The notes: generated from the sequence alone by a model not told the origin. Counted from the stretch's first letter, positions 4,914-35,954 are shown. The stretch: DNA of 64,000 bases from an uncultured archaeon (GCA_937921735.1 CAKZTQ010000032.1:12083-76082); one strand, 5' to 3'. Numbers and translations: made by a program.

Positions 4914-4972
4914 CCTCCCGACCCAAAGGTTTGAAATCCACCGGCGAACAATTCTGTACGAGTTTGATAATA

Positions 4973-6332: not shown

Positions 6333-6410
6333 GCCCATCCGTTCGATCAGCTCGAAGACGCCTAAAGAGCACAGGCTAACCTGTACCCGAGACCAAAAGG
6401 GTTTTTAACG

Positions 6411-6694: not shown

Positions 6695-6783
6695 AGTTAA
6701 AAATTGGCTTCCCGCGGCTATAAAGCTTGGCCCACGTAAAGAGCAAACGAGGCATCGTGGAACACCAACTCTTTTGGCTGGCT

Positions 6784-7191
6784 CTAGCGCGCCTCGAAGA
6801 GGTAGAAGGCCGCCCCCCGGTGGTTCACGAGCTTCCCTCCGGGCAGCACGCTCTCCGCCGCCAGGGGCTTCACGATCAGGTCGGCGCCCACCTTGCGGGC
6901 CAGCTTCAGCAGGTAAGGCTGCAGCTCGGGCGGCGGCCGCATCGCGTATATCAGGGCGGCGTTCTCGTAGATTCGAAGCCTTGGGTTGGTGACGTCGTCG
7001 CGCTCGAACCTCACACCCGGCGGCAGGGGCGGCGGAGGGGAGATGTCGGTGGCTACTATCTCGCAACCGGACAAGCGTCTGCTCAGCTCGATGGCGGTAG
7101 CGGGAAGCGCACCCACGCCCACCTCGACGATCTTCCTCGCGTGGGGATAGCGGGCAGCGATGTAATCCGCGATCGCCTCGAACTCACGCAA
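6784..7191 (-). CDS. UPF0146 family protein
   Basis: KIVEVGVG, DDVTNP, LIYAMRPPPELQ. Confidence 0.85.
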   Translation of the reverse strand: MREFEAIADYIAARYPHARKIVEVGVGALPATAIELSRRLSGCEIVATDISPPPPLPPGVRFERDDVTNPRLRIYENAALIYAMRPPPELQPYLLKLARKVGADLIVKPLAAESVLPGGKLVNHRGAAFYLFEAR

Positions 7192-7196
7192 GGGGA

Positions 7197-8840: not shown

Positions 8841-8843
8841 CCT

Positions 8844-10406: not shown

Positions 10407-10481
10407 AACTCAAAGCCTACCGTGCTATAAAAACTACCTCCAAAAAGTCTCGTCGAGGGTCAGCGGAGCCTTAACTTGCGG

Positions 10482-11468
10482 CTACGCTCGCCTGAAGTGC
10501 TCGTATCCACGGTCGGGCAATTCCTCCAATTTGCCATCCTTCTCGATGTAGACCCCGCGGCCCCTCTCCACGCGCCCGATCGCGGTCGCCGACGTGTCCA
10601 TGCGCTTCAGCGCCCACCGTATCCCTCGCCAACCCTCAGGGCGAGCCGTGAAGAGGAGCTCGAAATCCTCGCCCCCGAAGAGCGCGAACTCGCCCGCGTC
10701 TAACCCTCGCCGCTCGGCGAACTCCTCGACGAGGGGGTGAACGGGCACCCGCTTGAGGTCCAGGATGAGCTTGACCCCGCTCATCCTCGATATCTGCCAA
10801 AGGTTCGACGCTAGGCCATCGGTCACGTCTATGGCGGCGGTGACGTGGCCGCACTTGGCGAGCGCGATTCCCTCCCTCACCCTCGCTATCGGCTCGAGCT
10901 GGGCTCTGACGAGCTCCTCGTAGCCCCCGCTGGGCAGCTTTTCCAACAATATCCTTAGCCCAGCCGAGGCCGCGCCCAAGCTACCCGTGACGGCGATGAT
11001 ATCACCCGGTCTAGCTCCAGAGCGGGTTAGCAGCCTTCCTTTCCTCGCCACGCCGAAGGCCGCGCCGGCTATGATGATCTCCTCGCTTTCGTCGAGATCG
11101 CCGCCCACCACGTATGCCCCATATTTTCTGGCCGTAGCGTCCATGGTGCGGATCATCCTTTTAACGAACTCCACCTTTAGCTGGCGGGGCAGGCCCACGG
11201 AGAAGACTAGGCCCAGCGGCTCCGCCCCCATCGCGGCCAGGTCGCTGAGGTTGGCGACGACCGCCTTCGCCCCCATCTGCTCCGCGGTTGCGGCGGTTGG
11301 GAAGTGCTGGCTCGCGACCAGCATGTCCGTCGTGACCACTAGGTAGCGTCCGTCGATATCGATCGCAGCGGCGTCGTCGCCTATCCCCACTTCGACCTTG
11401 GGCCCCTTGACGCAGATCCTGCGCGCGAGTTCGATCAGGGCCCTCTCGCCCACATCGCTGAGCTTCAG
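10482..11468 (-). CDS. thiL: Thiamine-monophosphate kinase
   Basis: GIGDDAA, NLSDLAAMG, GGD, DVTDGL, GGEDFEL. Probable CTG start (LKLSDVGE) after a GAGGTGA SD. Confidence 0.93.
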   Translation of the reverse strand: MKLSDVGERALIELARRICVKGPKVEVGIGDDAAAIDIDGRYLVVTTDMLVASQHFPTAATAEQMGAKAVVANLSDLAAMGAEPLGLVFSVGLPRQLKVEFVKRMIRTMDATARKYGAYVVGGDLDESEEIIIAGAAFGVARKGRLLTRSGARPGDIIAVTGSLGAASAGLRILLEKLPSGGYEELVRAQLEPIARVREGIALAKCGHVTAAIDVTDGLASNLWQISRMSGVKLILDLKRVPVHPLVEEFAERRGLDAGEFALFGGEDFELLFTARPEGWRGIRWALKRMDTSATAIGRVERGRGVYIEKDGKLEELPDRGYEHFRRA

Positions 11469-11511
11469 GTTCTCACCTCACCGCTCCAAGTTTGCGCAAG
11501 TTCGCAAGGAG

Positions 11512-11868
11512 CTACAACAACGGCAGGTCGCCGGTTATCCCGTCGACGGCCTCGCTCGGCGCCGGGCCCACGGCCAAGACCGTCGTAGTGTTCGGGGGCA
11601 GCTCCGTCAGCCCGGCATCTCGGATGAGCTCGCATGGCAGGCCAAGTTTCCTCGCCCTTCCGTAAAGCTCCAGGAGCTCCTTTTCCCCCTTCACCTTCAC
11701 CACCACCTTTTTCTGACCCTCGACAAGCCACGCGTCCAGCCATTCCCTCCTTTCCAGCCTCGCTCGTTCAGCCGCCGCTACCGCGCCGTGCGCCACTTGG
11801 ACGGCTAGTTTCCCGGGGCTCATGTTCAGGTCCGTCCTGACGATTATCACTTGCTTGTACTTGAACAC
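11512..11868 (-). CDS. pth2: Peptidyl-tRNA hydrolase Pth2
   Basis: YKQVIIVRTDL-MSPGKLAVQVAH, GQKKVV, DAGLTE, VGPAP. Confidence 0.95.
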   Translation of the reverse strand: MFKYKQVIIVRTDLNMSPGKLAVQVAHGAVAAAERARLERREWLDAWLVEGQKKVVVKVKGEKELLELYGRARKLGLPCELIRDAGLTELPPNTTTVLAVGPAPSEAVDGITGDLPLL

Positions 11869-11869
11869 C

Positions 11870-12307
11870 TCAACCGCCCACCTGTTTTTCGTCCGGGGCT
11901 TGTCCAGCAGCGGGTTCTGGCTTTTGGAGCTCTTGCCCACCCCCTTCTGGCGCGGGTCCTGCTTGTGGCGGGGGTGGGGGTTTGGGCCTGCGCAGGGCCC
12001 GCATGGCAGCGCGCGCATAACCGAGCGGGACAGCGAGGCCCCCTCGCACGTATGCCGCGACTACACAGGCCGCACAGAACAGCAAGACCGTCCCGACGAA
12101 CGGAGCGAGGCGGAGCATCCTGATGTGGGGTAGGGCCAGCAGGACGCCGGCATAGATCACCACGAGCGCGCCGAGCCCGAGACTCAACGCTGCGCGGGAC
12201 CAAGGGTCCAAGCTCTCCCATCTGGGGAAGAGCACAAGGGTGAGCAAGAAGCCTGGAGCGAGCAGCAAGAATAAGCCCAGCAGGATGAGGCCAAATTGCT
12301 CAAGCAT
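11870..12307 (-). CDS. Membrane protein, DUF1616 N-terminal-like, with Pro-rich C-terminal tail
   Basis: PGFLLTLVLFP...R-ALS-GL; three hydrophobic helices. Confidence 0.6.
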   Translation of the reverse strand: MLEQFGLILLGLFLLLAPGFLLTLVLFPRWESLDPWSRAALSLGLGALVVIYAGVLLALPHIRMLRLAPFVGTVLLFCAACVVAAYVRGGLAVPLGYARAAMRALRRPKPPPPPQAGPAPEGGGQELQKPEPAAGQAPDEKQVGG

Positions 12308-12357
12308 TGACCCACGCTAGGTAGGATTATCTACTTGGGCTTTAAAACCATTGTCAG

Positions 12358-13554
12358 ATGTACGACGTCGCGATAGTGGGCGGGGGTCCTGTTGGCTGTT
12401 TCGCCGGCAAGTTGTTGGCCGAGCGTGGTCTCGACGTCGCCGTGATCGAGGAACATGCCGAGATAGGCCATCCCATGTGTTGCGCTGGTGTGGTGGGCGT
12501 CGGCGGCCTCCGCGAGCTGGGGATTAGACCGGGCAAGTGGGTGCTCAACGAACTTAGGGGTGCGAGGCTCTACCCGCCCTCGGGGAGCCCTGTGAGCTTG
12601 AGCCGGGGAAGGGTAGAAGCTCTGGTAATAGACCGTGCCGCTTTCGACAGGGAACTCGCGGCATCGGCTGCAAGGTCCGGCGCCCGCTTTCTCATGCGCA
12701 GCAGGTGCGTGGACATCTCGGTCGGCGAGCAGGTGAAGATCAAGGTCGAAACAGAGGGAAGGCTTCGCGAGATCGCCTCGCGCCTCGTCATAGGCGCAGA
12801 TGGTCCGAACTCCTTGGTCGCGCGCAAGGTCGGCCTTCTGAGGTCACGTCAGTTGATAAATTGCGCCCAGGCGGAGGCGATCGCCGACATCCATGCAGAG
12901 ACTGCCGAGGTGTACCTAGGCCGCAAATACGCGCCTGGCTTCTTCGCCTGGGTCGTGCCCGCTGGCGAGCTGTGCCGCGTAGGCGTCGGCACCGTTGAGG
13001 GTTCGGCCTTGGGGAAGCTCAAGAAGCTCTTGCGCGAGCACCCGGTCGTCTCGGAGAAGGTCGATGGGGACAAGCTCCTGCACCTCACGGCGGGGGCCAT
13101 CCCAAGGCCGTTGACGCGAGGGATGTACGCCGACGGGGTGATGTTGATCGGCGACGCCGCGGGGCAAGTGAAGCCCTTGACGGGGGGCGGGATATACATC
13201 GGCCTATCCTGCGCCAAGTTGGCGGCGGATGTTGCGGTCGAAGCCTTGGAGGAAGGCGACGTGAGCGCTAAGGTCCTGCGCAAGTACGAGGGGGCGGTTA
13301 GGGGGAAATTCGGTGGAGAGTTTGAGCTAGGCATGCGCGCTTGGCGGCTTTTCCTCGAGCTTTCCGACGAGGATCTGAGCTCCCTGCTTCGGGCGCTCGA
13401 GACACCGGATGTGAGGGCTACCCTGTTGGAGCAGGCCGATTTCGATCATCACGCCAAGGTCATCTCGGCCCTCGCGAAAAGGGGGCCGAGCTTGCTCCGC
13501 TCGCTCGGGTTAAGGAGGCTTGTGAGGTACACCAGCCACATGCTTAAAAAATAA
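12358..13554 (+). CDS. Geranylgeranyl reductase family FAD oxidoreductase
   Basis: GGGPVG, C-G, DRAAFD, IGADG, GFFAWVVP, IGDAAGQVKPLTGGGI. Confidence 0.9.
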   Translation: MYDVAIVGGGPVGCFAGKLLAERGLDVAVIEEHAEIGHPMCCAGVVGVGGLRELGIRPGKWVLNELRGARLYPPSGSPVSLSRGRVEALVIDRAAFDRELAASAARSGARFLMRSRCVDISVGEQVKIKVETEGRLREIASRLVIGADGPNSLVARKVGLLRSRQLINCAQAEAIADIHAETAEVYLGRKYAPGFFAWVVPAGELCRVGVGTVEGSALGKLKKLLREHPVVSEKVDGDKLLHLTAGAIPRPLTRGMYADGVMLIGDAAGQVKPLTGGGIYIGLSCAKLAADVAVEALEEGDVSAKVLRKYEGAVRGKFGGEFELGMRAWRLFLELSDEDLSSLLRALETPDVRATLLEQADFDHHAKVISALAKRGPSLLRSLGLRRLVRYTSHMLKK

Positions 13555-13761
13555 GGCGGAGATTCGACCCCTCGACTACTCTTCGGCAGGGCAATTGCAC
13601 CCCACCGCTTTTCGTCTCGGGGCCTTTTTCCCGCGGTTCTTGCCTCCGCGCCCACCACCGGGCGCATTAGCCTAGCCCTTCCCAAGTTCCCTTGGTTCCT
13701 GCAAGGCTCCCCGCCGCCCTTAGGCGCCGGTTCGGCCGTCACCGCGGGCTTCCTCTCCGCC
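13555..13761 (-). ncRNA. Putative structured non-coding RNA of unrecognised family (207 nt)
   Basis: Terminal helix GGCGGAGA/UCUCCGCC, nested CCCGCGGU/ACCGCGGG, CCAAG-GGAA-CUUGG and UGCGCCC/GGGCGCG. A-rich linkers; TATA-like TATTTAAG about 25 nt upstream. Confidence 0.65.
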
Positions 13762-14003
13762 AATTTTATTTTGAAAATTTTCCCTTAAATAACTGGTGGA
13801 ATGTCTTATTTCTGACCAAAGTGGACGATTTTCGCCCTGGATCAATCTGCTGGGGTGTGGCGTTTGTAATTTCCTCCCTTATCACGTCGCTACATCGACG
13901 AAGTTTTTGTTTATCGCAGATAGGCCTTATGCACCCCACGCGGCAGGAGCTGCTGACGGAGTGGGCTCTCCATGAATTTTATCCTTCAAATGCAATAATT
14001 AGC

Positions 14004-15023
14004 ATGATGCCCGCCAACCTACCTCCCGAATATCTGAAGGCGGAGGAGCGATACCTCCGCGCCAGGACGCTGGAGGAGAAGATCCTCGCGACGCAGGAGC
14101 TCATCCGCTTGGCCCCCAAGCACAAGGGCACCGAGAAATTGCTGAAGGTGCTCAAGAGGCGCCTGTCCAAGCTTCGCGAGGAGCTCCGCAGGCGGGAGAT
14201 GCGCCGGGTGGGAGGGGGCCCGAGCTTTCACGTCAAGAAGGAGGGTGTGGCACAAGTTGCGCTCGTAGGCGTCCCCAACTCAGGGAAGTCCACGTTGCTG
14301 AGGCAGCTAACGGGTGCCCAGCCGGAGGTAGCGGATTATCCCTTCACCACGCGCGAACCGGTGCCCGGTATGATGCAGTTCGAAGACGTGCAGGTACAGC
14401 TCGTCGAGATCCCCGCGATAATAGAAGGTTCGAGCTTGGGAAGGGGCCTGGGCGCCCGCCCCTTGAGCGCTGCCCGCAATGCCGATGCCATCGCCCTCGT
14501 GGTGGACGCCTCCAACGAGCCGCTGAGGCAGATGGAAACCCTCCTTTCTGAGCTCTGGGCGGCCGGCGTGCGGCTAAATAGATTTGCGGGAGAGGTAGTC
14601 GATGGGTTCGAGGAGCACAGCGAATCCCTCGTTGACAGACGCGCGGTTATCGTTGCGACGAAGGGGGATCTCCCTGGCGCTGAGGAAGGGTTCGAGTTGT
14701 TGTGCGGCAAATATGGCGAGAGGTTCCCGGCCGTCCTCGTTTCCCCCGTTGCGGGGAGTGGTCCGACGGAGGTCAAGCGTCTGATATTCGAGAGCTTGGG
14801 CCTCGTGCGGGTGTACACCAAGCGCCCAGACGAGCCACCATCCGAGCGCCCGTTGGTGTTGCCGAAGGGCTCCACCATCTTGGATGTAGCGAGGGCCGTC
14901 CACAAGGACATCGCAAGGGGGCTGAAATTCGCTAAGGTGTGGGGGTCCGCCCGCTTTCCCGGTCAACAGGTGCCTCGAGACTACGTGCTCCAAGACAAGG
15001 ACATCGTCGAGCTGCACGTGTGA
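14004..15023 (+). CDS. DRG/Obg-family GTPase with TGS domain
   Basis: PKHKGTEK, GVPNSGKST, YPFTT, VPGMM, C-terminal TGS domain (KVWG..F.GQ). True start about 14004-14007. Confidence 0.9.
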   Translation: MMPANLPPEYLKAEERYLRARTLEEKILATQELIRLAPKHKGTEKLLKVLKRRLSKLREELRRREMRRVGGGPSFHVKKEGVAQVALVGVPNSGKSTLLRQLTGAQPEVADYPFTTREPVPGMMQFEDVQVQLVEIPAIIEGSSLGRGLGARPLSAARNADAIALVVDASNEPLRQMETLLSELWAAGVRLNRFAGEVVDGFEEHSESLVDRRAVIVATKGDLPGAEEGFELLCGKYGERFPAVLVSPVAGSGPTEVKRLIFESLGLVRVYTKRPDEPPSERPLVLPKGSTILDVARAVHKDIARGLKFAKVWGSARFPGQQVPRDYVLQDKDIVELHV

Positions 15024-15032
15024 GGTCATAGC

Positions 15033-15791
15033 TTGCGGTCCTACGTAGACGCATGCGATGTCGAGCTCTTCGAGCTCAAGGGCCGAGAGTTGCCCGTGGC
15101 CATGCTCGGCACGAGTCCATTTTGCGGCGCCGGTCAGTTCGGCCCAAGGGCCGAGTTATATTACAGGACATTTTACGAACATCCCCAGAACATGGTCCGC
15201 CTGATCGTCGCGTCGACCGAGCTCGGCGTGCCTGCCGTCCACGTCGTCGCATATCCGAGGATTTGTTGGGCGGTCGCCGAGGCTTCGAGGGCGTGTGATA
15301 TCAAACTTTGCGTCTTGGGCACGATTGGCTTGCTCGACCCCATGGACGAACTCAAGCGTCTGCTCTCCCTGGGTGCGGTCGGGGTGGCAGTACATGCGGA
15401 CATCGTCGACCGCGACCCTAGCTCCGTGGAGCGATACGCGGCGGCGATACGCGACGGCGGGGCAGCGGTCGGCGTGGCCACACATCGCCCTTGGAAAACC
15501 CTGAGCAGGATCCGAGGGCTCGACTTGGATTTCGTGATGGCCCCCGTGAACAAGTCGGGCTACATGATGGGGCCTAGGCCCGGTGAAACGTTGGAACTCC
15601 TTCGTTCCTTGAAGGTGCCCATAATCGCCATCAAGCCCCTCGCGGCCGGCGAGCTAAGGCCCGGGGAAGCGCTCGAGTTCCTCCGCTCACGCGTCGACGC
15701 GGTAGCTGTGGGTATAGCGTCGGAGGAGGAGCTCATCGAAACTTGGCGGGCGGTAAAGGAGAACTTCACTCGCCGCGGAGGTACCTGGTGA
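15033..15791 (+). CDS. Aldo/keto-reductase-like TIM-barrel protein
   Basis: LGTSPF-GAGQFG, GVATH, APVN, IAIKPLAAG. Confidence 0.55.
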   Translation: MRSYVDACDVELFELKGRELPVAMLGTSPFCGAGQFGPRAELYYRTFYEHPQNMVRLIVASTELGVPAVHVVAYPRICWAVAEASRACDIKLCVLGTIGLLDPMDELKRLLSLGAVGVAVHADIVDRDPSSVERYAAAIRDGGAAVGVATHRPWKTLSRIRGLDLDFVMAPVNKSGYMMGPRPGETLELLRSLKVPIIAIKPLAAGELRPGEALEFLRSRVDAVAVGIASEEELIETWRAVKENFTRRGGTW

Positions 15792-16422
15792 TCTTCAGGA
15801 CGGCATCCGGCTTGCCCACGACCGTCACCAAATCTCCAGCCAATATCTCGGTTTCGCCCCTTGGGGGGATGAGGTCATCTCCCCTCGTTATCATCGCCAG
15901 CGTACAGCCCTTGGGGACGTTTATGTCCTTGATCCTCTGCCCCACCGCCTTGGAGTTGGGTCCGACGGTGACCTCCACCACCTCGCCCTTCCCGCCCCCT
16001 ATCCCTAGCAAGCCGTAGACGCCGGGGCCGCTCACGGCTTTCTCGAACAGCATCACCGCGGCGCTTATCAGGCTGACCGCTATGTCCACGCCCAGCTCCT
16101 CGAACATCCTCGCGTGCTTTTCGTCGTTCACCCTGGCGATGACACGTGGCACGCCCATCTTCTTCGCGAGCTCGCAGGCCATGAGGTTTACTTCGTCCGC
16201 CTGCGTGAGCGCCACTAGGACGTCCGCCCTATCCACCCCGGCATCCTTCAGGACGTCGATGTCGGCGCCATTGCCGTGGACGACGAGCACGTCGAGCTCA
16301 GCTGCAAGCTCGTGCGCCCGCCTCTCGTCCTTTTCTATGACCACCACGTTGTTACCCCTATCCGCGAGCCTCTTGGCGAGCTTTGAACCGGTCTGTCCGC
16401 CGCCTACAATTATAATATACAT
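15766..16422 (-). CDS. trkA: TrkA-family potassium uptake regulatory subunit (RCK N+C)
   Basis: IIVGGGQTG Rossmann motif, DEVNL, TrkA-C domain. Confidence 0.9.
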   Translation of the reverse strand: MYIIIVGGGQTGSKLAKRLADRGNNVVVIEKDERRAHELAAELDVLVVHGNGADIDVLKDAGVDRADVLVALTQADEVNLMACELAKKMGVPRVIARVNDEKHARMFEELGVDIAVSLISAAVMLFEKAVSGPGVYGLLGIGGGKGEVVEVTVGPNSKAVGQRIKDINVPKGCTLAMITRGDDLIPPRGETEILAGDLVTVVGKPDAVLKITRYLRGE

Positions 16423-16485
16423 CGGATCGCCTCTGCATCGGTGCCGTTATAAAGCACGATGTTCATCTATGGTAGGAGGGTTTAA

Positions 16486-17004
16486 ATGCCTATCCGACCG
16501 GCTCGCACCTATAGGTATTTCAGCGGCCCCGCGTACACGCGCAGGGAATACGTCAAGGGCGTGCCGGGGCTACGGGTTACCTTCTTCGACATGGGAAACC
16601 CGAAGGGCGATTTCCCCATCGAGATCTCCCTGATCTCCAAGGAGGCCGGCCAGATAAGGCACAACGCCCTAGAGGCTGCCAGGGTCGCGGCCAACCGCCT
16701 CCTGGAGACTAGGGTGGGCAAGAGCAACTACCACCTCAAGCTTCGCGTATATCCCCACCACGTGTTGCGGGAGAACCCAATGGCGGTGGGCGCTGGGGCG
16801 GACAGGATCTCCGACGGCATGCGCTTGGCCTTCGGCAGGCCCATAGGCGCCGCCGCTAGGGTCCACGCGGGACAAAGGTTGATGACCGTTCGCGTGGGGA
16901 AGGAATTCGCCCCCATAGCGAAGGAGGCGCTGCGCCGGGCCGCGGGGAAGTTGCCGATGCCTTGCAGCCTTCAGGTGGAGAAAGGGCAGGAACTACTCCA
17001 GTGA
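16486..17004 (+). CDS. rpl10e: 50S ribosomal protein uL16 (L10e)
   Basis: [38 protein letters not shown]. Confidence 0.97.
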
Positions 17005-17868
17005 GCTAGCCATCGCCGCGAGCAGCTCATATATTATCTTTGCCGCTGCGAAGGCCGTGGTGCCGTTGTCGTGGGGCGGGGTGAGCTCCACCACATCGAA
17101 GGCGAGGATTTTCAGCTTGCCCAGCTCGCGCACCAGCTTCAGCAGGTCGAGCGTCGATAACCCTCCAGGCTCCGGTGTGCTCACGCCCGGCGCGAAGGCG
17201 GGGTCGAGGACGTCGAGGTCCACTGTCAGGTAAACGGGGGAGCCGCCGACTTGCTCTTTTAGCTCGGCGGCAACTTCGGCCGGGTCTTTCAGCACCTCCT
17301 CGCTCGTATAGGTCTTGAGCTCTATCGAGTCGGCGAATTCCGCCTCCTCCTTGGAACAAGAGCGAACGCCCACTTGGAGCAAACGCTCGGCCGGTAGGCG
17401 ATCGAGGACCCTCCGCATCACCGTCGCGTGGCAGAGCCTATCGCCCAGGTACTCGTCGCGCAGGTCGCGATGGGCATCGAGTTGTATCACGGTCACATCG
17501 TCGAGGGCTTGAAGCGAGAAGTATGTAAGCGTATGCTCCCCCCCAAGCAGGGCCGGTATCTTTCCGTCGTCGTTCACGCGCTTGACCAGCGCCGAGATCC
17601 TCTCCCCAGTTGTCTCTAGATCGGTGGTTGTGATCATGAGATCCCCGAGGTCGGAGATGCTGAGCTTTTCGAAGACATCGAGTCCGGCCGAGGTTACGTA
17701 GGTCTCCAGGTTTGCGGATGCCTCGCGTATCCTCGCCGGCCCGAAACGGCAGCCGGAGCGATAGCTGGAGGTGATGTCGAGCGGGATGCCGGCGAACACC
17801 ACTTTCGCCCGCTCGTAGGGCTCGTCGAAGCCGCCAAAGCCCGGGCGGACGGGCGTCATGGCTTTCAT
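16993..17868 (-). CDS. speB: Agmatinase
   Basis: [35 protein letters not shown]. Confidence 0.93.
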
Positions 17869-17965
17869 CCCATCACCCTTCGAGTGTAGACCTCAAGGGC
17901 TATGAAGCTTTCCAAGACCTAGCAATTTAAAGTCGAACACCTCTACCTAAAGCACGGAGGTGTTC

Positions 17966-18523
17966 ATGGCGAAGATCGATGTGGATGCGAGCCTCGCCCC
18001 GAGGTTGTTCGCCCCTAGGTTGACGGTGCTGGTGACCTCCCTCGACAAAAAGGGCAGGGCGAACATCATAACCCTCTCTTGGGCCATGCCGACCTCCTTT
18101 GACCCACCCTTAGCGGCGATAAGCGTGGGAAAGCGGAGGTACTCCCACGAGCTCATCGAGGGCTGCAGGGAGTTCGTGGTGAACATCCCCTCGCAGGACA
18201 TCTTGGAAAAAGTCCAACTTTGCGGCTCCCGCTCGGGTAGAAACGTGGACAAGTTCGCCGAAAGCGGCCTGACGCAGCTCCCGAGCAAAAAGGTCAAGCC
18301 ACCCAGGATAAAGGAGTGCGTCGCCCACCTCGAGTGCAAGCTCGTCGATAGCCTGAGTACAGGAGATCACACCATTTTCATCGGCGAGGTGGTGGCAGCC
18401 TCCGTCGACGAGGAAGCGTTCGACGGAATGGAAAAGTGCATAAAGTTGGAGACCTTTAAGCCCATCCTCCACCTGACCGGCCCGTACTTCACCACTTCGA
18501 CGAGCGTGAGGCAAATAAACTAG
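17966..18523 (+). CDS. Flavin reductase-like (DIM6/NTAB, flavoredoxin) protein
   Basis: PP-AISV, EFVVNIP, CGSRSGR-VDKF, LEC, GDHTIFIGEV. Confidence 0.9.
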   Translation: MAKIDVDASLAPRLFAPRLTVLVTSLDKKGRANIITLSWAMPTSFDPPLAAISVGKRRYSHELIEGCREFVVNIPSQDILEKVQLCGSRSGRNVDKFAESGLTQLPSKKVKPPRIKECVAHLECKLVDSLSTGDHTIFIGEVVAASVDEEAFDGMEKCIKLETFKPILHLTGPYFTTSTSVRQIN

Positions 18524-29884: not shown

Positions 29885-30478
29885 TTATCGATGGGAAAGT
29901 TTTGCGTAGCGCTTGTCGAGTTCTTCTACCAGCTCCTTTACCTCCTTGATTTCGGCAGCGTAGGGGCCTAGGTCTGCGTGCACGGCTCGCCAGAGCTCGT
30001 CTAACTCGCGCGCGCGATTTCCACGTTCTCGATACTTAATAGCTTGAATTAGCATAGAGAGATAGTCAGCCGCGTGGACGATCTTCGCCTCAAAGGTGTA
30101 CTTCTCCGAGTACTCCCGCCAAAGTTCCATAAGCATTTGTTGATTGGGCAGACCGGCGACGAGATCCCTCATCGCCTTGCCCTCCATTTGTTTCTTAGTT
30201 CCGGGTTCCCCCAAATACTTCAAAGCCGTGTAGGGAAAGTCCGCAACCATCGCCTCTGCCCAGTCATGCAGAAGCGCCATGCTGAGGGCCCTTTCGACAT
30301 CTAGCTCGCGGCCGCCGCGCTTTGCCTCGTCCGCTAGCAGGAGCGCGATCGCCGCTACCTCAAAGGTATGCTGTGCAACGTCTTCGACTTCGTTCAATGG
30401 CACATTGCACAGCAGCCAACCCGTTCGGGGTATACGCTTGAGGTCGTTAAGTTTTTCCAAAAGCTCGCTCAGTTTCAA
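29885..30478 (-). CDS. HD-domain phosphohydrolase (YfbR/5'-deoxynucleotidase-like)
   Basis: LKRIPRTGW, E-VAQH, ALLHD-AE, AD. Confidence 0.88.
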   Translation of the reverse strand: MKLSELLEKLNDLKRIPRTGWLLCNVPLNEVEDVAQHTFEVAAIALLLADEAKRGGRELDVERALSMALLHDWAEAMVADFPYTALKYLGEPGTKKQMEGKAMRDLVAGLPNQQMLMELWREYSEKYTFEAKIVHAADYLSMLIQAIKYRERGNRARELDELWRAVHADLGPYAAEIKEVKELVEELDKRYAKLSHR

Positions 30479-30879
30479 ACTACCACCAACTTAGCCTGCT
30501 TAACGCCCCGCATGGCTCCGATGCGGTCGACAAGCTTGCGGATTTCGTCCGCCGCTCCTTTCACGACGATGATCTCTAGGCAATTCTTGGCATCGACGTG
30601 CAAGTGCTGGGCGGCGCTTATCACCTTCGAGTGCTGGTGCTGGATGTCCATGAGTTCGTCCACCAACCCCCTGACGTCGTGCTCGTAAAGCACCATGATG
30701 GCCCCCAGCTGCTCACCCTTCAACTCGCTCCTCCACTTGTAGTTCGCCAAGAAATCGCGAAGGGCGTCCCTAATGGCTTCCGAGCGGCTCGCGTAGCGTT
30801 GAGCCCTAAGCACGCGATCGAGTTCGTCGAGCAGCTCACAAGGCAGGGTGAGGCTTATGCGAGCTATTCTCGAAGACAT
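30475..30879 (-). CDS. nikR: Nickel-responsive regulator NikR
   Basis: RHH domain (RISLTL...SRSEAIRDA); Ni-site pattern QH...HLH-x5-C. Confidence 0.95.
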   Translation of the reverse strand: MSSRIARISLTLPCELLDELDRVLRAQRYASRSEAIRDALRDFLANYKWRSELKGEQLGAIMVLYEHDVRGLVDELMDIQHQHSKVISAAQHLHVDAKNCLEIIVVKGAADEIRKLVDRIGAMRGVKQAKLVVV

Positions 30880-30929
30880 GATGGCACGATTGAATTTGCA
30901 AGATTTGGACATTTATGTTTTGCCGAAAC

Positions 30930-31223
30930 TCAGCACTTTGAGCGGGGTCTCGAGAGGACGACTGCGAAACCCCAAATGACGAGCACCGGGATGAGCATCA
31001 CGATTCCAAGTATGATCCCGCTAGTGATAGCCCCTTCCGTGGTCACCCGTATGAATTCCCCTCCTTCGTGCAGGTATCCGAGCACGTGGTCGACGAGTAT
31101 CATCACCGTTGCTCCCCAAAGCATCAGACTCAGCATTCCGAGCTTGTATTCCCTGATGCCTAGAATTCTTAGCACCGTCACTAGACATGCCGCGATCAAC
31201 GTCGTTATCAGCCACATGCTCAT
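30930..31223 (-). CDS. Small 3-TM membrane protein (paralog of 31226-31552), NikR operon
   Basis: Three hydrophobic helices; LWGATVMILVDH motif. Confidence 0.75.
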   Translation of the reverse strand: MSMWLITTLIAACLVTVLRILGIREYKLGMLSLMLWGATVMILVDHVLGYLHEGGEFIRVTTEGAITSGIILGIVMLIPVLVIWGFAVVLSRPRSKC

Positions 31224-31225
31224 GC

Positions 31226-31552
31226 CTACCTACGGATACCCAATCTCGTTTCCATCGTCTTTATCAAGTTGAGCCGCGGGGCGATCGTCAGCATGCCTGT
31301 CCAAAGGAGAGTGCATGCTAGGGCCATTGGAACTCCGATCCGAACCATTTCCGGCAGGACTTCAGATAGTCCGGCGGTCAAGAAGGGCGGATATGGCACG
31401 ATTTCTCCGTGAGCTAAATGTTCGACCGCCAACATCGCCACGCCGCCCCACAGTAGAGCGTTTAGCCAGTTTATGTTGTACCTCGTCGGGAACTTTTTCC
31501 TGAACAGCGTGGTTATCGCGCCCAGCGCCATGGGAACGAGGAAACAAGCCAC
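31226..31552 (-). CDS. Small 3-TM membrane protein (MACFLVP...), first gene of the NikR operon
   Basis: GTG start after a GAGGTGA SD; LWGGVAMLAVEH-x2-HGE, PPFLTA. Confidence 0.75.
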   Translation of the reverse strand: MACFLVPMALGAITTLFRKKFPTRYNINWLNALLWGGVAMLAVEHLAHGEIVPYPPFLTAGLSEVLPEMVRIGVPMALACTLLWTGMLTIAPRLNLIKTMETRLGIRR

Positions 31553-31572
31553 CCTTTCACCTCTTGCTTTTT

Positions 31573-31600
31573 GTAATACTTTTCCATATTTAAATATTAC
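31573..31600. promoter_or_regulatory. Putative NikR operator overlapping a TATA box
   Basis: Perfect inverted half-sites GTAATA (31573-31578) and TATTAC (31595-31600) with a 16-nt spacer that contains the minus-strand TTTAAATA. Same geometry as the E. coli NikR site GTATGA-N16-TCATAC. Confidence 0.75.
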
Positions 31601-31687
31601 CAATTCGATAGTAAAGCGCCAAAGAATTTTGCAGCCCAAAAGAAAAGGCATAAATTGACGAAAATCCACCGTAATCCGGTGAGGTGA

Positions 31688-31954
31688 ATGGAAAAGGAAC
31701 CTGTTGAGAAGAAACTCGTAGGAAAGGTTACCCACTACTTTACGAGGATTGGGGTAGCAGTCGTTGAGTTGACAGACGAGTTAAAGATAGGCGACAGGAT
31801 TTCCATAGAGGGCGCGACCACGAATTTTCAACAGGTAGTGGGCTCCATGCAGATCGAACATAAAGACGTAAAGGTCGCTACGGCTGGGCAATCGATAGGT
31901 CTGAAGGTCGACCAAAGGGCACGTGAAGGGGACCTCGTCTACAAGATCCTTTAA
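31688..31954 (+). CDS. Translation-factor-like beta-barrel small protein
   Basis: VGKVTHYF-IGVA, L-IGD-I-I-G-TTNF-Q-V-SMQIEH, G-KV. Confidence 0.8.
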   Translation: MEKEPVEKKLVGKVTHYFTRIGVAVVELTDELKIGDRISIEGATTNFQQVVGSMQIEHKDVKVATAGQSIGLKVDQRAREGDLVYKIL

Positions 31955-32823
31955 GCGGTTAGATCTAGCTTAAAAAGCAGGATTTTCGCCTTTCTTATAT
32001 TTTCGGGAAGATTTCTGCAGTTCTTACAAAGGCCCATAGTTTGGGCGATCAAATCGCGATACCCTGAGAACTTCTCCTTTTTTTCCAGTATTCTGTCTAA
32101 GGTTCTCTCGAGTTGGGGGGTCGGCGCGAAAGTACTTCCGCATGCTGAGCATCGCCGCAGCTCTATCTTGGCTTCAGCCCCGATCGCTTTTCTATCCCCA
32201 GTTGCTCGTGGGCGCTCGGCCCCAAGCTCCACTGCCTCCTCCGGGCAGGCCTCCTCGCAGGAGGCACAGGAAATGCACTTTTCGTATCTGAACCTCACCT
32301 TTCGTTCGTTGCCTTCGTCGACCATCTCTATTGCTCCAGTCGGACAAACCTGCACACAGGCCCCGCATCCGGTGCACTTCTCCGCGTCGATATTGGGCAT
32401 TCCCCGAAAGCCACCGGGCACCTCCCAAGCTTTTGACCCCAGCTTTAAAACGTCAACGAGAGCCTCGACGATGGCGTGAGGGCTTGGAGGACACCCAGGC
32501 ACATATGCGTCCACGTGAATTATTTCGTCCACCATGCCGTCCACGCTATAAGAGCCCTCGAAGGCCTCGCCGGACAGGGCACAAGCGCCGACCGCGATGG
32601 CTAGCCTCGGCGGCTTCAACCTTTCGTATACTTCTCTGAGCATATCTCGCGTCTTGACCGTCGGTACCCCTGTGACGATGAGCACGTTGGCCTCACTTGG
32701 GTCCCCGACGAGCTTTACCCCCAGCTCCTCTAACCCGAACCTTCTCGCAAATGCGCTGAACACTTCGATGTCACATCCGTTGCACGAGCCTACGTCCAGA
32801 CGATAAACGTTGACCTGCCTCAA
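31951..32823 (-). CDS. Group 4 [NiFe]-hydrogenase small subunit (NuoB-like) fused to a 2x[4Fe-4S] NuoI-like domain
   Basis: GSCNGCDIE, GACA, VPGCPP; then GFRG-P, two CxxCxxCxxxCP motifs and extra C-terminal CxxC pairs. Confidence 0.9.
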   Translation of the reverse strand: MRQVNVYRLDVGSCNGCDIEVFSAFARRFGLEELGVKLVGDPSEANVLIVTGVPTVKTRDMLREVYERLKPPRLAIAVGACALSGEAFEGSYSVDGMVDEIIHVDAYVPGCPPSPHAIVEALVDVLKLGSKAWEVPGGFRGMPNIDAEKCTGCGACVQVCPTGAIEMVDEGNERKVRFRYEKCISCASCEEACPEEAVELGAERPRATGDRKAIGAEAKIELRRCSACGSTFAPTPQLERTLDRILEKKEKFSGYRDLIAQTMGLCKNCRNLPENIRKAKILLFKLDLTA

Positions 32824-33959
32824 ACCCCTCTCCTGAGCTCCGACAGCTCCACCTGATGCTTTTTTCCAGTTCGTTGATCTACGAGCGTCAGACGATTTGT
32901 GCAGGAGATGCAGCGGTCTATGCTTTCTAAAATCAAGGGAAGGTCACTTAACCTCTGTCCCCGCAACATCTCAGGGAGGCTGCGCTCGTTCATGTAGGTG
33001 GGCGTTCTGATCTTTACCCTCTCAGGGATGTTCGTGCCGTTCGACTTGACGAAGTAGATCAATTCGCCTCGCGGCGCTTCCACCCTCCCAACCTCTTCCT
33101 TTTCCTTTGGCGGCTCGCCAACTTCGGCCGCGATGTTGCCGGATGGGAAATCGTCTAATAGCTGCCGTATGATCTCGATGCTTTCAAAAGTTTCCTTTAC
33201 CCTGACAAGCGTTCTCGAAAGCACGTCTCCCCCGTCCTCCACCTGCACCTCGAAGTCTACCTCTTCGTATGCGGCGTAGGGATCGTCCTTGCGAACGTCG
33301 CTCTCAACGCCGGATGCCCTCAAAACGGGCCCCACGACACCTAACGCCAGCGCTTTCTCCCTTGGCAATGGGCCTATCCCCGAAAGTTTCGGGGCAAGTT
33401 CCCGCGTGGCACGGGCGATGTACCCTGAGAGGCTTGTTAAATCGTCTAGCGCGTGTCTAAGTCTTCTGATCATCTCCACGCTTAGGTCCCCCCTCACCCC
33501 ACCTATCGCGTTGATCCCATAATGGACGCGGTTGCCGCACATCAGCTCGATCAGATCCATGATTTCCTCCCGCGCATCGACGATTTTGATGAAATGTTCC
33601 TTTTCGCCGAGGGTGTGAAACAGTAACGCGGTCCATAGATAATGGCTCTGGAGCCGCTCAAGTTCAAACATAATCGTTCGAATGTACTTGGCCCTCTCCG
33701 GTGGCTCAACCTCGAAGACCTTCTCTACGGTTTGACAGTAACAAGTGGTGTGGGCATGTGAGCAAAATCCGCATATCCGCTCGCATAGGAAAACGCCTTG
33801 GGCATAGGTCTTTGTGGCGAGGAGCCTCTCGATGCCCCTATGCGTGTAACCTTGCTTTATGTCCACGTCGACGATCTTCTCGTTGCTCACCGTAACTTCG
33901 TAGAGTTCGGGCTCTACCAAGGCAGGATGATAAGGACCTATGACTACTATTTTCGACGT
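32820..33959 (-). CDS. Group 4 [NiFe]-hydrogenase large subunit
   Basis: GPYHPALVEP, HRGIE, L1 ERICGFC, ELERL-SH, EAPRGE, RTPT, L2 DRCISCTNR plus C-terminal extension. Start uncertain (ACG at 33959). Confidence 0.9.
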   Translation of the reverse strand, partial: TSKIVVIGPYHPALVEPELYEVTVSNEKIVDVDIKQGYTHRGIERLLATKTYAQGVFLCERICGFCSHAHTTCYCQTVEKVFEVEPPERAKYIRTIMFELERLQSHYLWTALLFHTLGEKEHFIKIVDAREEIMDLIELMCGNRVHYGINAIGGVRGDLSVEMIRRLRHALDDLTSLSGYIARATRELAPKLSGIGPLPREKALALGVVGPVLRASGVESDVRKDDPYAAYEEVDFEVQVEDGGDVLSRTLVRVKETFESIEIIRQLLDDFPSGNIAAEVGEPPKEKEEVGRVEAPRGELIYFVKSNGTNIPERVKIRTPTYMNERSLPEMLRGQRLSDLPLILESIDRCISCTNRLTLVDQRTGKKHQVELSELRRGV

Positions 33960-33962
33960 ACG

Positions 33963-34829
33963 CTACACCCCCATTTTCTCGATCAACTGTGAAATGGGGC
34001 TGCGGTGGAACTCGAGCTTGAGCTCGTTTGTAGGGACGCCCACCGCCAAAGCCAATAACTCAACTATGTGGAGGCACGGAAAGTTGTATTTCAAGCCATA
34101 TTTCCTTAGCGAGATCTGGCCCGTCTCAAACTGGAGGATGCACATTGGACAAGCGGTAATGATGCCGTCAACCATAAGTTCCTCGTAGCATCTCAATTTG
34201 AGGTGCAGCCTCTCTTTAAGTGCCGCTTCTTCGTTTACTTGCATCATTGGGAATCCACAACACATGCGATCTAGTTTGCAGCTGACCACGTCGGCGCCGG
34301 TAGCTTGTACCAGCTCCGTCAACATCCCCGGTTTTCTCCAAATGTCCCCCCCGTCGGCCTCGCGAAAGAGATGACATCCAGGATGAACCGCAGCCCTGAA
34401 CGTCAGTGGTTTGGCGATTTCCTTTATTCGGCTGATCCCAATGTCTTCGTATAGAATTTCAACGATGTGTTTCACGTTTACCGTGCCCTCATACTTTCTC
34501 CCGACCTCCGAAAGTAGTCCGTTCACCTCTTCTCTCAGTCCACTTTCTTGCTTCATCGCTTCGTTCGCTTCCCAAAGCGTTTCGTAGCACCCGTTGCACA
34601 AGGTTATGATATCCAAACCAAGTTGCTCGGCTAAGCTTAGGTTTCTAGCGGAGAGCGCGAGGGACATCCGCCTGTCGGCTAAACGTGCCACCACAGGATC
34701 TGGACAACAGGAGTAGCCGGAAAGGTCCAATACCTCAACACCTAGCCTCTCGAAAAGTTTTCTGGCTGCAAGTTCCACGCTGGGGATCCTCTGAGGGATG
34801 AGACAACCTAAGAATAGTGCGTATTTCAT
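33963..34829 (-). CDS. Heterodisulfide reductase subunit B-like (CCG domains)
   Basis: MKYALFLGC, SCCP, TLCNGC, HPGCH, CCG, TACPMC-QF. Confidence 0.9.
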   Translation of the reverse strand: MKYALFLGCLIPQRIPSVELAARKLFERLGVEVLDLSGYSCCPDPVVARLADRRMSLALSARNLSLAEQLGLDIITLCNGCYETLWEANEAMKQESGLREEVNGLLSEVGRKYEGTVNVKHIVEILYEDIGISRIKEIAKPLTFRAAVHPGCHLFREADGGDIWRKPGMLTELVQATGADVVSCKLDRMCCGFPMMQVNEEAALKERLHLKLRCYEELMVDGIITACPMCILQFETGQISLRKYGLKYNFPCLHIVELLALAVGVPTNELKLEFHRSPISQLIEKMGV

Positions 34830-34834
34830 GAAAT

Positions 34835-35491
34835 CTACCCTCGCCTCAACTTTTTCCTCTCCCAATCGTATCCTGCTTTTTTATCGAAGGCAACCCGTTT
34901 CATCAGTTCCTGAAGTTCGCGGAGTGCTTCCTCGCTCGCGTAGCTGGCAGGGGGAGATGCCGGCAGACCGGCTTCGTCTCTCTTCCGCTGCATGTGAGGT
35001 GAAAGCGGGGCGGTCGTGCCAACCGATATCAGGGACTCGGCCACCGGACATATTTTAGCAGGAAGCTCCCCCTCGAAGGGGCCTCTCAGGGGTGGACTCC
35101 CGGACCACCCCTCCGGTAATAGTAAGGGAGCAGGTCTTGGATGGGCTTTGAACCTCACTCCGAAAAGCTCAGCGGTTTCCCTCTCCGCCCACTCCGCGGC
35201 TGGCATTAAATCCGAGATGCTGTCGATTTCACTTGTTTCCTTCGCGATCACCGCGCGCAAGACCACAACTGTGCCATCGACGTCGAAGTTGTAAAGCAAT
35301 TCGATGTCTAGACCTTCGTCGACGGCAGCTAGCATCATAAACCTTCCCTTATTCGATAGTATCTCGACCGCCTTCCGAATCGACCGCGGCTCGATTTCGA
35401 CAACCGCCCTCCTTTCGCGAGAGTAAATGACCCTCGCCTTGACTTCCCTCGTGAGACCCTCGAGGATTTCATCCACGGCCAGATCGGTCAC
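34835..35491 (-). CDS. NuoC/MbhK-like (complex I 30-kDa) subunit
   Basis: ELLY-F, IDSIS, AEWAERE-AELFGV-F-HP, LLLPE-W, PPLR. Confidence 0.85.
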   Translation of the reverse strand: MTDLAVDEILEGLTREVKARVIYSRERRAVVEIEPRSIRKAVEILSNKGRFMMLAAVDEGLDIELLYNFDVDGTVVVLRAVIAKETSEIDSISDLMPAAEWAERETAELFGVRFKAHPRPAPLLLPEGWSGSPPLRGPFEGELPAKICPVAESLISVGTTAPLSPHMQRKRDEAGLPASPPASYASEEALRELQELMKRVAFDKKAGYDWERKKLRRG

Positions 35492-35954
35492 CCTCTATAG
35501 CATACATGCGTCTGTTAAATTCCTCCGCCTCGGCTCGGCTTACCACTCTCAAAGCTCCGGGCGAACAATACTTCGCGCATACCGGATCTCCATCGCAGAA
35601 ATCACATTTCGCCGAAACTCGATGTTCCTCGTCGAACCATGGGCATGATAGGGGACAAGCTAGGATGCAGGACCGGCAACCAATGCACTTCATCGGATTT
35701 ATCTTCACCCATCCGCTCTCATCGCTTTTGGTTATCGCTTCCTCGGGGCAGGACGCCAAGCAAACCGGCTCCTCGCAGTGTCTGCAGTTCGTTGCCTCAA
35801 ATCTCGCCACACGTTCATCGAGCGAAATATGGATGTGAGATTTAGCTGGATCTAGGGTGCCATAGTGCTGAAAAGCACAAGCTATTTCACAATATCCGCA
35901 GCCCGTGCATCGCTCTGGGTCGTAAATCAAAACTTTCTGATGGGCTGCTTTCAT
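35469..35954 (-). CDS. 4x[4Fe-4S] ferredoxin-like protein (HycB/CooF/DmsB type)
   Basis: CTGCGYCEIAC, CRHCEEPVC-CP, CIGCRSCILACP, KCDFC-P-C-C. Confidence 0.92.
   Translation of the reverse strand: MKAAHQKVLIYDPERCTGCGYCEIACAFQHYGTLDPAKSHIHISLDERVARFEATNCRHCEEPVCLASCPEEAITKSDESGWVKINPMKCIGCRSCILACPLSCPWFDEEHRVSAKCDFCDGDPVCAKYCSPGALRVVSRAEAEEFNRRMYAIEGDRSGRG

Follow-up and report, generated by a model that had tools for sequence, protein, structure and literature searches.

In textbook accounts, both complex I and the group 4 [NiFe]-hydrogenases are machines of the membrane. The locus described here, in a 64,000-nucleotide stretch of DNA from an uncultured archaeon (the window), encodes a hydrogenase of this group together with an HdrB-type subunit, and raises the question of whether the redox arm of such a machine can work apart from the membrane. 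The original prediction offered two possible answers: the complex-I-like parts could make up a soluble H2:disulfide oxidoreductase, or they could be a detachable head that serves a membrane arm whose genes lie elsewhere. From the sequence comparisons made in the present study, the operon probably specifies a [NiFe]-hydrogenase:disulfide reductase that would be cytoplasmic, with five subunits and no membrane arm, and would not pump ions.

A tight operon of five genes

The five genes lie on the minus strand between positions 31951 and 35954, in the order ferredoxin, NuoC-like protein, HdrB, large subunit and NuoB-NuoI fusion. With overlaps of 23, 31 and 4 nt between neighbours, the operon is a tight one, as was originally proposed, and every one of the five genes is in place. 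Domains were assigned with Pfam and NCBIfam, and the window gave no Rfam match. The first gene (35469-35954) specifies a four-cluster [4Fe-4S] ferredoxin of 161 aa, a HycB/HydN-like electron wire of the HydN/HybA/DmsB type (Fer4_11). Its four cluster motifs hold 16 cysteines, none of which varies among the 17 orthologues compared, and its best solved relatives are the Fe-S subunits of AOR/WOR5 and the HycB of HDCR and FHL. An apparent fusion of the ferredoxin and NuoC-like genes in one relative (L018) was ruled out because its translation has a stop between the two genes, and an apparent long ORF in another (L034) is the product of an over-extended start in a different frame.

The NuoC-like subunit (34835-35491, 218 aa) carries a Complex1_30kDa domain over residues 31-140, and in the protein atlas it is linked to generic NuoC clusters only. 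Its tail, of about 75 residues, is homologous to the C-terminal part of HdrC. In a profile of 15 orthologues, positions 1-145 match NuoC chains while positions 144-220 match HdrC chains, the latter aligning with residues 107-183 of the 184 in 5odc_C (E 5.6e-11) and also with four more HdrC chains. Similarly, positions 84-143 of the 144 in TIGR03290 match residues 146-205 of the NuoC-like protein (34877-35056; E 1.9e-6), and classical NuoC proteins show no match past query residue 162. The tail could be aligned in all 23 HdrB-linked relatives, one of which is truncated at its end, and among the best 80 related loci it is restricted to HdrB-linked clusters; it offers a simple sequence marker for HdrB-coupled hydrogenases in metagenomes. 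It is also the sole HdrC-family match in the window's own assembly (1.06 Mb, 83% complete), where the two-cluster ferredoxin domain of HdrC was not found.

The HdrB embedded in the operon (33963-34865, 300 aa) is of full length, as expected, with two CCG domains (PF02754 twice) and ten cysteines, in two C...CC...CxxC sets, that are invariant in 20 of 20 sequences. Its profile matches the HdrB of the solved HdrABC end to end (5odc_B, E 2.4e-97), and no other solved CCG protein matches it better than E 1e-4. The TIGR03288 score of 274.2 bits lies under the curated equivalog cut-off of 345.15, and no McrA was found in the window's assembly, so a disulfide substrate is assumed here from family membership. 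Secondary matches were obtained with TfrB and, at 116 bits, with the SdhE-type anchor of methylmenaquinol:fumarate reductase, and a second CCG protein was not found in the window or the 1.06-Mb assembly. The gene ends 15 nt ahead of the likely start of the large subunit.

The group 4 [NiFe] large subunit (32820-33947, from the likely start) contains PF00346 (Complex1_49kDa) and PF00374 (NiFeSe_Hases), and no other [NiFe] large subunit was found in the assembly. No ATG, GTG or TTG occurs at the conserved N-terminus and the start codon is uncertain: counted from the first TTG the protein has 366 aa (32820-33920), the open frame reaches 33962, and relatives are around 375 aa long. Both Ni-binding CxxC pairs are retained, in the motifs RICGFC and DRCISC (fitting RxCGxC and DxCxxC), and all 18 aligned relatives have the Ni ligands C50, C53, C337 and C340 (numbered on the 366-aa protein). 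The arginine in place of the proline of DPC, already pointed out in the original prediction, is genuine but uncommon, as DRC was seen in six of the 81 large subunits examined, all of them among 14 that are linked to a fused NuoB-NuoI, with DPC in the other 75. A tail of 23 residues follows CxxCxxR. Among solved chains, HycE (7z0s_E) and MbhL (6cfw_L) come closest.

The last gene (31951-32823) encodes the NuoB-NuoI fusion, of 290 aa, which consists of a small subunit (PF01058, Oxidored_q6; residues 14-124), a two-cluster ferredoxin domain (Fer4 domains; residues 143-199) and a C-terminal CxxC...CxxC module, residues 132-275 being HycF-like. Of its 16 cysteines, 15 occur in every one of 16 sequences and the remaining one in 15 of them; the four-cysteine cluster site of NuoB (C14, C17, C81 and C111) is kept in all 16. 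Full-length fused homologues make up about 60 clusters. The gene comes directly after that of the large subunit, which is the place of NuoH in membrane-bound relatives.

The genetic context includes a nickel-responsive regulator, NikR (30475-30912, minus strand; NikR_C and RHH, NF002169 at 162 bits), and a NikR homologue is also present downstream of the cluster in L007. The suggested search for hyp genes was successful in part, with HypC, HypD and HypF present in the window's assembly and HypE, HypA and a HycI-type protease not found in it at 83% completeness; HycI is present in all five relatives searched. An AIR-synthase-like gene at 10482-11453 was considered as a candidate HypE, and is ThiL. 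A GC step in the window might have pointed to a chimeric contig, but equally wide GC variation occurs over the whole assembly and the step carries no such meaning. Among four sequencing runs compared, one marine metagenome run contains a near-identical contig and is possibly the source, and in three hot-spring runs the stretch is covered by contigs from relatives, most of them no more than 90-95% alike. The libraries of two hot-spring runs are labelled metatranscriptomic, but these runs are marked 'probably DNA'.

Related loci and membrane subunits

Locus counts in this study refer to the best 80 related loci from a scan of a genome collection. Sixteen of these have a fused NuoB-NuoI and no NuoH (the fused form), nine have the same HdrB core together with NuoH/antiporter genes, and 55 are classical and have no adjacent HdrB. 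In 24 of the 80 the gene just upstream of the large subunit is HdrB, and one more locus is cut inside the large subunit. The nine membrane-bound HdrB loci come from Bathyarchaeia, Desulfurococcales and an Asgard archaeon, and follow the gene order of the window (four-cluster ferredoxin, tailed NuoC-like protein, HdrB, large subunit); their membrane genes were confirmed by Pfam in L017 and L026 (NADHdh and Proton_antipo_M) and in L029 (Proton_antipo_M). A tree built from 45 large subunits places the 17 sequences of the fused form in one branch (support 100/100), separate from the membrane-bound HdrB loci, and the window in a set of six Hadarchaeota sequences (support 100/99). Other members of the branch are from Bathyarchaeia, Thermoplasmatota and two bacterial phyla. 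Synteny and phylogeny were two of the checks that had been called for: the gene set is syntenic across relatives and the NuoH-less form is a single branch. The tree is unrooted, as the use of two distant paralogues as root (end branches of 3.4 and 10) collapsed the backbone, and the form without membrane subunits may be either ancestral or derived. A clade conserved across several phyla, in which the whole redox arm is kept and every membrane subunit dropped, suggests that the arm can stand alone.

As originally stated, there is no NuoH or NuoL/M/N-type subunit in the window, nor was a NuoK-type one found there (PF00146, PF00361, PF00420), and the widened search found none in the 1.06-Mb assembly at its 83% completeness. 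The five proteins themselves have no membrane-helix-grade stretch, the highest 19-residue Kyte-Doolittle mean being 1.41. Two small membrane ORFs downstream of the operon (30930-31735; 19-residue means of 1.73 and 2.84) were considered as anchors and rejected, since homologues are found at only one of the 80 loci, about 5 kb off and on the other strand, and a conserved convergent gene stands between the ORFs and the operon.

The genomes of relatives are informative on this point. A Bathyarchaeota genome (G001, 1.19 Mb, titled 'chromosome') and three Hadarchaeota genomes (G047, G036 and G012; 92%, 90% and 89% complete) carry the fused form and have no PF00146 or PF00361 match, which argues against a membrane arm encoded elsewhere. 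Fifteen Hadarchaeota genomes carry the fused form and 11 of them also have NuoH, with one match each. In the five that were compared (G051, G024, G033, G049 and G016), NuoH adjoins a separate NuoB and/or NuoI match, in a classical cluster. The last of these belongs to the same genus as the window organism, and its NuoH and an antiporter gene sit in a separate, classical membrane-bound cluster; with the window's assembly being 83% complete, the absence of a membrane arm in the window organism therefore falls short of proof. At one locus (L009) the fused-form and classical clusters lie side by side.

Proposed reaction and competing explanations

In the reaction proposed for the soluble complex, the large subunit would split H2 at its Ni-Fe site and hand the electrons to the single NuoB cluster. 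From there they would move over the two clusters in the NuoI part of the fusion and then the four of the HycB-like ferredoxin, and end at the non-cubane pair of HdrB, where a disulfide would be reduced to two thiols. Both the order of this wire and the direction of flow are what we infer from the parts. The HdrC-type tail of the NuoC-like subunit may hold HdrB on the hydrogenase, the NuoB-NuoI fusion would fill the gene position that NuoH has in membrane-bound relatives, and no ion pumping would be involved. The presumed disulfide is probably not CoM-S-S-CoB, because no McrA was found. Underlying this proposal are the parts themselves, their cofactor-binding residues, the synteny, the clade, and the several genomes without membrane subunits; the presence of HypC, HypD and HypF beside a sole [NiFe] large subunit, and Drh of Methanocellales as a precedent in print (PMC9723716), also count for it. 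Points against it are that H2-driven disulfide reduction without energy coupling brings no obvious gain for the cell, that the conserved N-terminus of the large subunit has no usual start codon, and that HypE, HypA and HycI were not found in the 83%-complete assembly.

The same soluble complex could instead serve mainly ferredoxin, as a ferredoxin:disulfide/proton oxidoreductase that provides an electron sink for fermentation rather than H2 uptake, with reduced ferredoxin entering at the four-cluster protein and passing its electrons to protons, giving H2, or to HdrB. Mbh and FHL, whose large subunits are the closest by sequence (6cfw_L and 7z0s_E), evolve H2 in their hosts, and HycB-type proteins, to which the four-cluster protein belongs, connect the hydrogenase of FHL and HDCR with a donor enzyme. 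However, there is no formate dehydrogenase, CODH or oxidoreductase donor gene in the operon or conserved beside it, and direction cannot be told from sequence alone, so that we consider such a role rather unlikely. Unlikely too, and placed just behind it, is that the HdrB-type subunit acts on another substrate, such as a protein-bound persulfide or lipoyl group, sulfur or polysulfide, or a quinone-like or organic acceptor. Its full-length match to HdrB is far better than that to any other solved CCG protein (E 2.4e-97 against no better than 1e-4) and all ten cluster cysteines are kept; on the other hand, other CCG-domain proteins do act on substrates of this kind, the TIGR03288 score is 274 against a cut-off of 345, the secondary matches include SdhE-type (116 bits) and TfrB proteins, and no McrA was found in the assembly. 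The disulfide of the related Ehe was likewise left open in the Culexarchaeia paper, with GcvH being suggested (PMC9723716).

The idea that the five proteins form a detachable head, on the membrane arm of a classical group 4 enzyme encoded elsewhere or on the two small membrane proteins, draws on the presence of NuoH in 11 of the 15 fused-form Hadarchaeota genomes (including that of the same genus, G016), on the adjoining clusters of L009, and on the two small membrane ORFs that follow the operon in the window. Each NuoH compared has its own NuoB and/or NuoI match beside it, though, G001 and three genomes that are 89-92% complete have no NuoH or antiporter match, and the small ORFs have homologues at one of 80 loci and are set apart by the conserved convergent gene, making this explanation improbable. 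Of the two alternatives first offered, the head module is accordingly disfavoured (by G001, G047, G036 and G012, the window's own assembly being 83% complete), and the soluble H2:disulfide oxidoreductase is the better supported, by synteny, the one NuoH-less branch and the genomes without NuoH or antiporter.

More tentatively, and with somewhat less than even confidence, the soluble hydrogenase:disulfide reductase may be viewed as an autonomous complex-I-type peripheral arm, in which NuoB-NuoI replaces the NuoH scaffold and a piece of HdrC clamps HdrB, acting as a flavin-free H2:disulfide oxidoreductase that maintains a pool of thiol cofactor in archaea that are not methanogens (Hadarchaeota, Bathyarchaeia) and that has spread to bacteria. 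The complex points to a putative disulfide/thiol couple in abundant subsurface archaea without methanogenesis, and its five soluble proteins would be a favourable target for structural and enzymological study of how HdrB is fed without HdrA.

Comparison with known systems

Hydrogenases of group 4 that work with HdrB have already been published, and PMC9723716 names Ehd, Ehe, Ehg, 'Ehd-like' and Drh. The background given with the original prediction, in which HdrB partners HdrA/C and a group 3c hydrogenase, was correspondingly incomplete; novelty is therefore reduced, and the surprise limited. Drh, the 'disulfide-reducing hydrogenase' of Methanocellales (PMC9723716, PMC6046458), is like the window form in having a group 4-type core with HdrB and no antiporter, and direct reduction of the heterodisulfide with H2, without ion translocation, has been proposed for it (PMC9723716). 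It has also been termed 'putative membrane-associated' (PMC6046458), and its host is a methanogen that makes CoM-S-S-CoB, whereas no McrA was found in the window organism's 83%-complete assembly. Ehd (Methanomethylicia), Ehe (Culexarchaeia) and the 'Ehd-like' enzymes with Bathyarchaeia also combine a group 4 core with HdrB/HdrC parts, but these complexes contain an ion antiporter, as does Ehg, and have been modelled as ion pumps bound to the membrane (PMC9723716). The window form differs from them in having no NuoH, no antiporter, and a NuoB fused to NuoI. It could be a stripped-down descendant of the ion-pumping Ehd-type complexes, or their soluble forerunner.

HdrABC-MvhAGD (5odc) shares with the window an HdrB that matches end to end, and the last 77 of its 184 HdrC residues correspond to the NuoC-like tail; the hydrogenase is of group 3c there but a complex-I-like one of group 4 here, where no HdrC ferredoxin domain was found. 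Flavin-based electron bifurcation is not expected here if the flavoprotein HdrA is indeed absent. FHL (7z0s) and Mbh (6cfw) provide the closest solved large and small subunits, and FHL also has the four-cluster HycB-type wire and a HycF-like counterpart of the NuoI part, but both have NuoH-like/antiporter-like anchors, separate NuoB and NuoI, and no HdrB. Judged by sequence, what is new here is the HdrC-homologous tail of about 75 residues on the NuoC-like protein, and the fused form as a whole is a soluble, widespread and apparently undescribed variant of hydrogenases known to pair with HdrB.

Gene content and ligands of the operon

Gene calling places five genes on the minus strand of the window (31951-35954), spaced along the operon by a 23-nt overlap, a 31-nt overlap, a gap of about 15 nt and a 4-nt overlap. 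By Pfam and NCBIfam matches they specify a ferredoxin of the HydN/HybA/DmsB type (161 aa), a NuoC-like protein (218 aa), an HdrB-like protein with two CCG domains (300 aa; best match TIGR03288, at 274 bits against the curated 345), a large subunit matched by both Complex1_49kDa and NiFeSe_Hases, and a fusion (290 aa) of a NuoB-type small subunit (residues 14-124) with a two-cluster NuoI/HycF-like domain. The four Ni-ligand cysteines of the large subunit are invariant in all 18 aligned sequences, as are the 16 cysteines of the ferredoxin, in four cluster motifs (17/17), and the ten of HdrB, arranged as two C...CC...CxxC sets (20/20). Sixteen cysteines of the fusion are kept in 16 of 16 sequences, except for one that is found in 15. 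Located 3' of its two ferredoxin motifs is a C-terminal CxxC-x37-CxxC module (31951-32200), with three of the four cysteines present in all 16 fused proteins and the fourth in 15; it may be a site for zinc or an additional cluster. The closest solved relatives of the ferredoxin are four-cluster wires such as HycB, those of the large subunit are HycE and MbhL, and HdrB aligns over its full length with its counterpart in solved complexes (5odc_B, E 2.4e-97). A hydrophobic stretch of membrane-helix grade is absent from all five proteins, and on all these points the original prediction, a group 4 [NiFe]-hydrogenase with an embedded HdrB and no membrane arm, described the gene set correctly.

What it missed is that the NuoC-like protein ceases to be NuoC over its final ~75 residues. 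Residues 146-205 correspond to positions 84-143 of the 144-position HdrC model of NCBIfam, and a profile built from 15 orthologues divides in the same way: positions 1-145 match NuoC chains, while positions 144-220 match the HdrC chains of five solved Hdr complexes (e.g., 5odc_C, residues 107-183 of 184, E 5.6e-11). A profile search of the window's genome found an HdrC-family match only in this tail. It could be aligned in each of the 23 HdrB-linked relatives whose NuoC-like gene is in view, with the end missing in one of them, and its terminus has a conserved G[YF]DW.K[KR]KLRY-like motif; in classical clusters, NuoC matches never extend past query residue 162. In the HdrABC-MvhAGD structure paper, the C-terminal part of HdrC is reported to be an extension wrapped around HdrB. 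If that holds, a built-in HdrB clamp would be part of the NuoC-like subunit.

The start of the large-subunit gene is unusual. No ATG, GTG or TTG precedes the conserved N-terminus VIGPYHPAL (33920-33962, minus strand); the codons there are aaa ata gta gtc ata ggt, and the first canonical start, the TTG at 33920, would remove this conserved strand. A 93%-identical relative starts with M where the window has the first gta, which suggests either a non-canonical start or a sequence error.

Downstream of the operon are two short membrane-protein ORFs of 169 and 97 aa (30930-31735, minus strand) that matched nothing in Pfam or NCBIfam. Homologues occur at only one of the best 80 related loci (L009, 15741-16371), about 5 kb from the hydrogenase cluster and on the opposite strand. 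Between these ORFs and the operon stands a convergent gene of 88 aa (31688-31954, plus strand), overlapping the operon end by 4 nt and with weak matches to EF-Tu domain 2 and the peptidase U32 C-terminal domain. It has a counterpart of equal length and place in locus L007, with the same weak Pfam matches, and an ORF of equal length and place is also seen in L008. A NikR gene lies 3' of the operon in both the window and L007. On a larger scale, GC content steps near 18 kb from about 0.63 (1-18000) to about 0.53 (18000-64000). Housekeeping genes flank this step, with TFB, Trm1 and PheRS on one side and EF-2 on the other, and the assembly as a whole is equally uneven in GC (5-kb windows; mean 0.572, sd 0.046).

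Three architectures among related loci

Homologues of the large subunit number in the thousands. The best 120 are about 375 aa long and 53-93% identical, and those with a named source belong to Hadarchaeota, Bathyarchaeia and a single Hodarchaeaceae bin. Scanning genomes, one for each species, gave 589 relatives; the window's proteins were mapped on the best 80 of these loci, and four assignments at loci truncated by contig ends were corrected by hand. Sixteen of the 80 have form A, with a fused NuoB-NuoI and no intervening gene before the cluster. The order ferredoxin, NuoC-like protein with tail, HdrB, large subunit, fusion is kept in 13 of them (Hadarchaeota, Bathyarchaeia and one Thermoplasmatota), and the fusion gene comes first in the three bacterial loci (two NC10/Methylomirabilota, one Baltobacteraceae). 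Form B (nine loci; Bathyarchaeia, Desulfurococcales and an Asgard archaeon) shares the first four genes of form A; next comes a protein of 304-333 aa, predicted to have 6-9 helices, and then separate NuoI and NuoB. Large multi-helix proteins are encoded nearby, and Pfam matches to NADHdh (NuoH) and Proton_antipo_M were found in L017 and L026, and to Proton_antipo_M in L029. The remaining 55 loci are of the classical form C, ordered NuoB, NuoC, large subunit, gap, NuoI, without an adjacent HdrB. HdrB is thus syntenic in relatives, immediately preceding the large-subunit gene in 24 of the best 80 loci, and additionally in L016 (form A) the locus is cut inside the large subunit. In L009 (Hadarchaeales), a classical membrane-bound group 4 cluster of antiporter, NuoB, NuoC, large subunit, NuoH and NuoI genes directly precedes the fused, HdrB-linked cluster in the same orientation (2135-10738).

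A careful IQ-TREE run was made on 45 large subunits, comprising that of the window, those of the 25 A and B loci, and 19 of the 55 C loci (every third sampled, 36 left out). A single branch separates the 17 fused-form rows (support 100/100), the window falls inside a six-row Hadarchaeota set (100/99), and the classical rows lie on one side of another branch (100/99); the backbone collapsed when two very distant paralogues were included. The gene set is real, conserved and clade-forming. The tree is unrooted and fits both loss of a membrane arm and a membrane-less form that came before the membrane-bound type. Of the 81 large subunits examined, six have the DRC variant of the second Ni motif, all among the 14 type A rows, and the other 75 have DPC. 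The three bacterial copies (L023, L034 and L035) nest within the archaeal fused-form clade, and their large subunits end right after CxxCxxR, without the C-terminal tail, suggesting transfer to bacteria and a protease-free maturation. On a contig named Hodarchaeaceae (Asgard), the large subunit and fusion are 67% and 74% identical to those of the window (P0008, P0125), closer than many Hadarchaeota copies; gene transfer or misbinning may account for this.

Maturation, membrane genes and likely reaction

In the window's assembly (G000; 1.06 Mb in 60 contigs, 83% complete), no other [NiFe] large subunit and no other CCG protein was found. HypD and HypC are encoded together on contig 39 and HypF on contig 21; searches of the 83%-complete assembly gave no HypE, HypA or HycI-type protease, and HycI was present in all five relatives searched. 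The alignment of the large-subunit profile with HycE continues across the C-terminal tail, which is consistent with a putative cleavable extension without proving it. Directly 5' of HypD and HypC, in the same orientation, are genes for a glutaredoxin and for a flavoprotein resembling thioredoxin reductase (contig C39 of G000; L005, 117-2821), so that a thiol/disulfide gene pair adjoins hydrogenase maturation genes.

The original prediction allowed that the five proteins might be a detachable head for a membrane arm encoded elsewhere. No NuoH, NuoL/M/N-type or NuoK-type genes were found in the window's assembly which, at 83% completeness, is weak evidence by itself; other genomes offer stronger evidence. 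A 1.19-Mb Bathyarchaeota record titled 'chromosome' (L019) carries form A and has no match to PF00361 or PF00146. Full-length fusions occur in 15 of 66 Hadarchaeota species genomes, and in four of these (G000, and G047, G036 and G012, at 92%, 90% and 89% completeness) NuoH is absent; the last three also lack an antiporter gene. The other 11 have a single NuoH match each, among them G016, a relative of the same genus as the window's organism, which may therefore own a classical membrane-bound hydrogenase missed by its assembly. Such a missed hydrogenase would be a second enzyme and not the missing half of this one. In the five genomes whose gene coordinates were compared (G051, G024, G033, G049 and G016), NuoH adjoins a separate NuoB and/or NuoI, as part of a classical cluster that supplies redox subunits of its own. 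With the fused form present in genomes that have neither a NuoH nor an antiporter match (that of L019, G047, G036 and G012), a head module is highly improbable.

The subunits, ligands, gene order, NuoC-like tail and lack of membrane subunits in several genomes are direct observations, and the other option of the original prediction, a soluble H2:disulfide oxidoreductase, is their best reading, somewhat better than even. H2 would be oxidised at the Ni-Fe site of the large subunit, and electrons would pass from the NuoB cluster through the two NuoI clusters to the four HycB-like clusters of the ferredoxin, and then to the two non-cubane clusters of HdrB, where a disulfide would be reduced. The same soluble complex might instead be fed by ferredoxin, which seems rather unlikely. 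No McrA was found in the window's assembly, making CoM-S-S-CoB an unlikely substrate; that the HdrB-type subunit acts on something other than a simple disulfide is itself unlikely. For the favoured oxidoreductase, flavin-based bifurcation would not be expected, as the operon lacks the flavoprotein HdrA, nor would ion pumping, as there is no membrane arm.

Comparison with published HdrB-linked hydrogenases

Group 4 hydrogenases co-located with HdrB are already in print. PMC9723716 names Ehd (Methanomethylicia), Ehe (Culexarchaeia), Ehg (Nezhaarchaeia) and an 'Ehd-like' clade that includes Bathyarchaeia, all modelled as membrane-bound with an antiporter, together with Drh (Methanocellales), which has no antiporter and is proposed to perform H2-driven heterodisulfide reduction without ion translocation. 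Drh is termed 'putative membrane-associated' and is upregulated in syntrophic co-culture (PMC6046458), and a cultured strain of Methanonezhaarchaeia expresses Ehg (PMC12700198). The form B loci found here fit the Ehd-like description. In the literature searched, neither a NuoH-less form or clade with a NuoB-NuoI fusion nor an HdrC-like tail on NuoC is described, and the primary Ehd and Drh papers and their supplements may hold one. The pairing of a group 4 hydrogenase with HdrB is thus known, and the novelty of the original prediction narrows to the fused, NuoH-less form and its clade, to which the present study adds the HdrC-like tail of NuoC.
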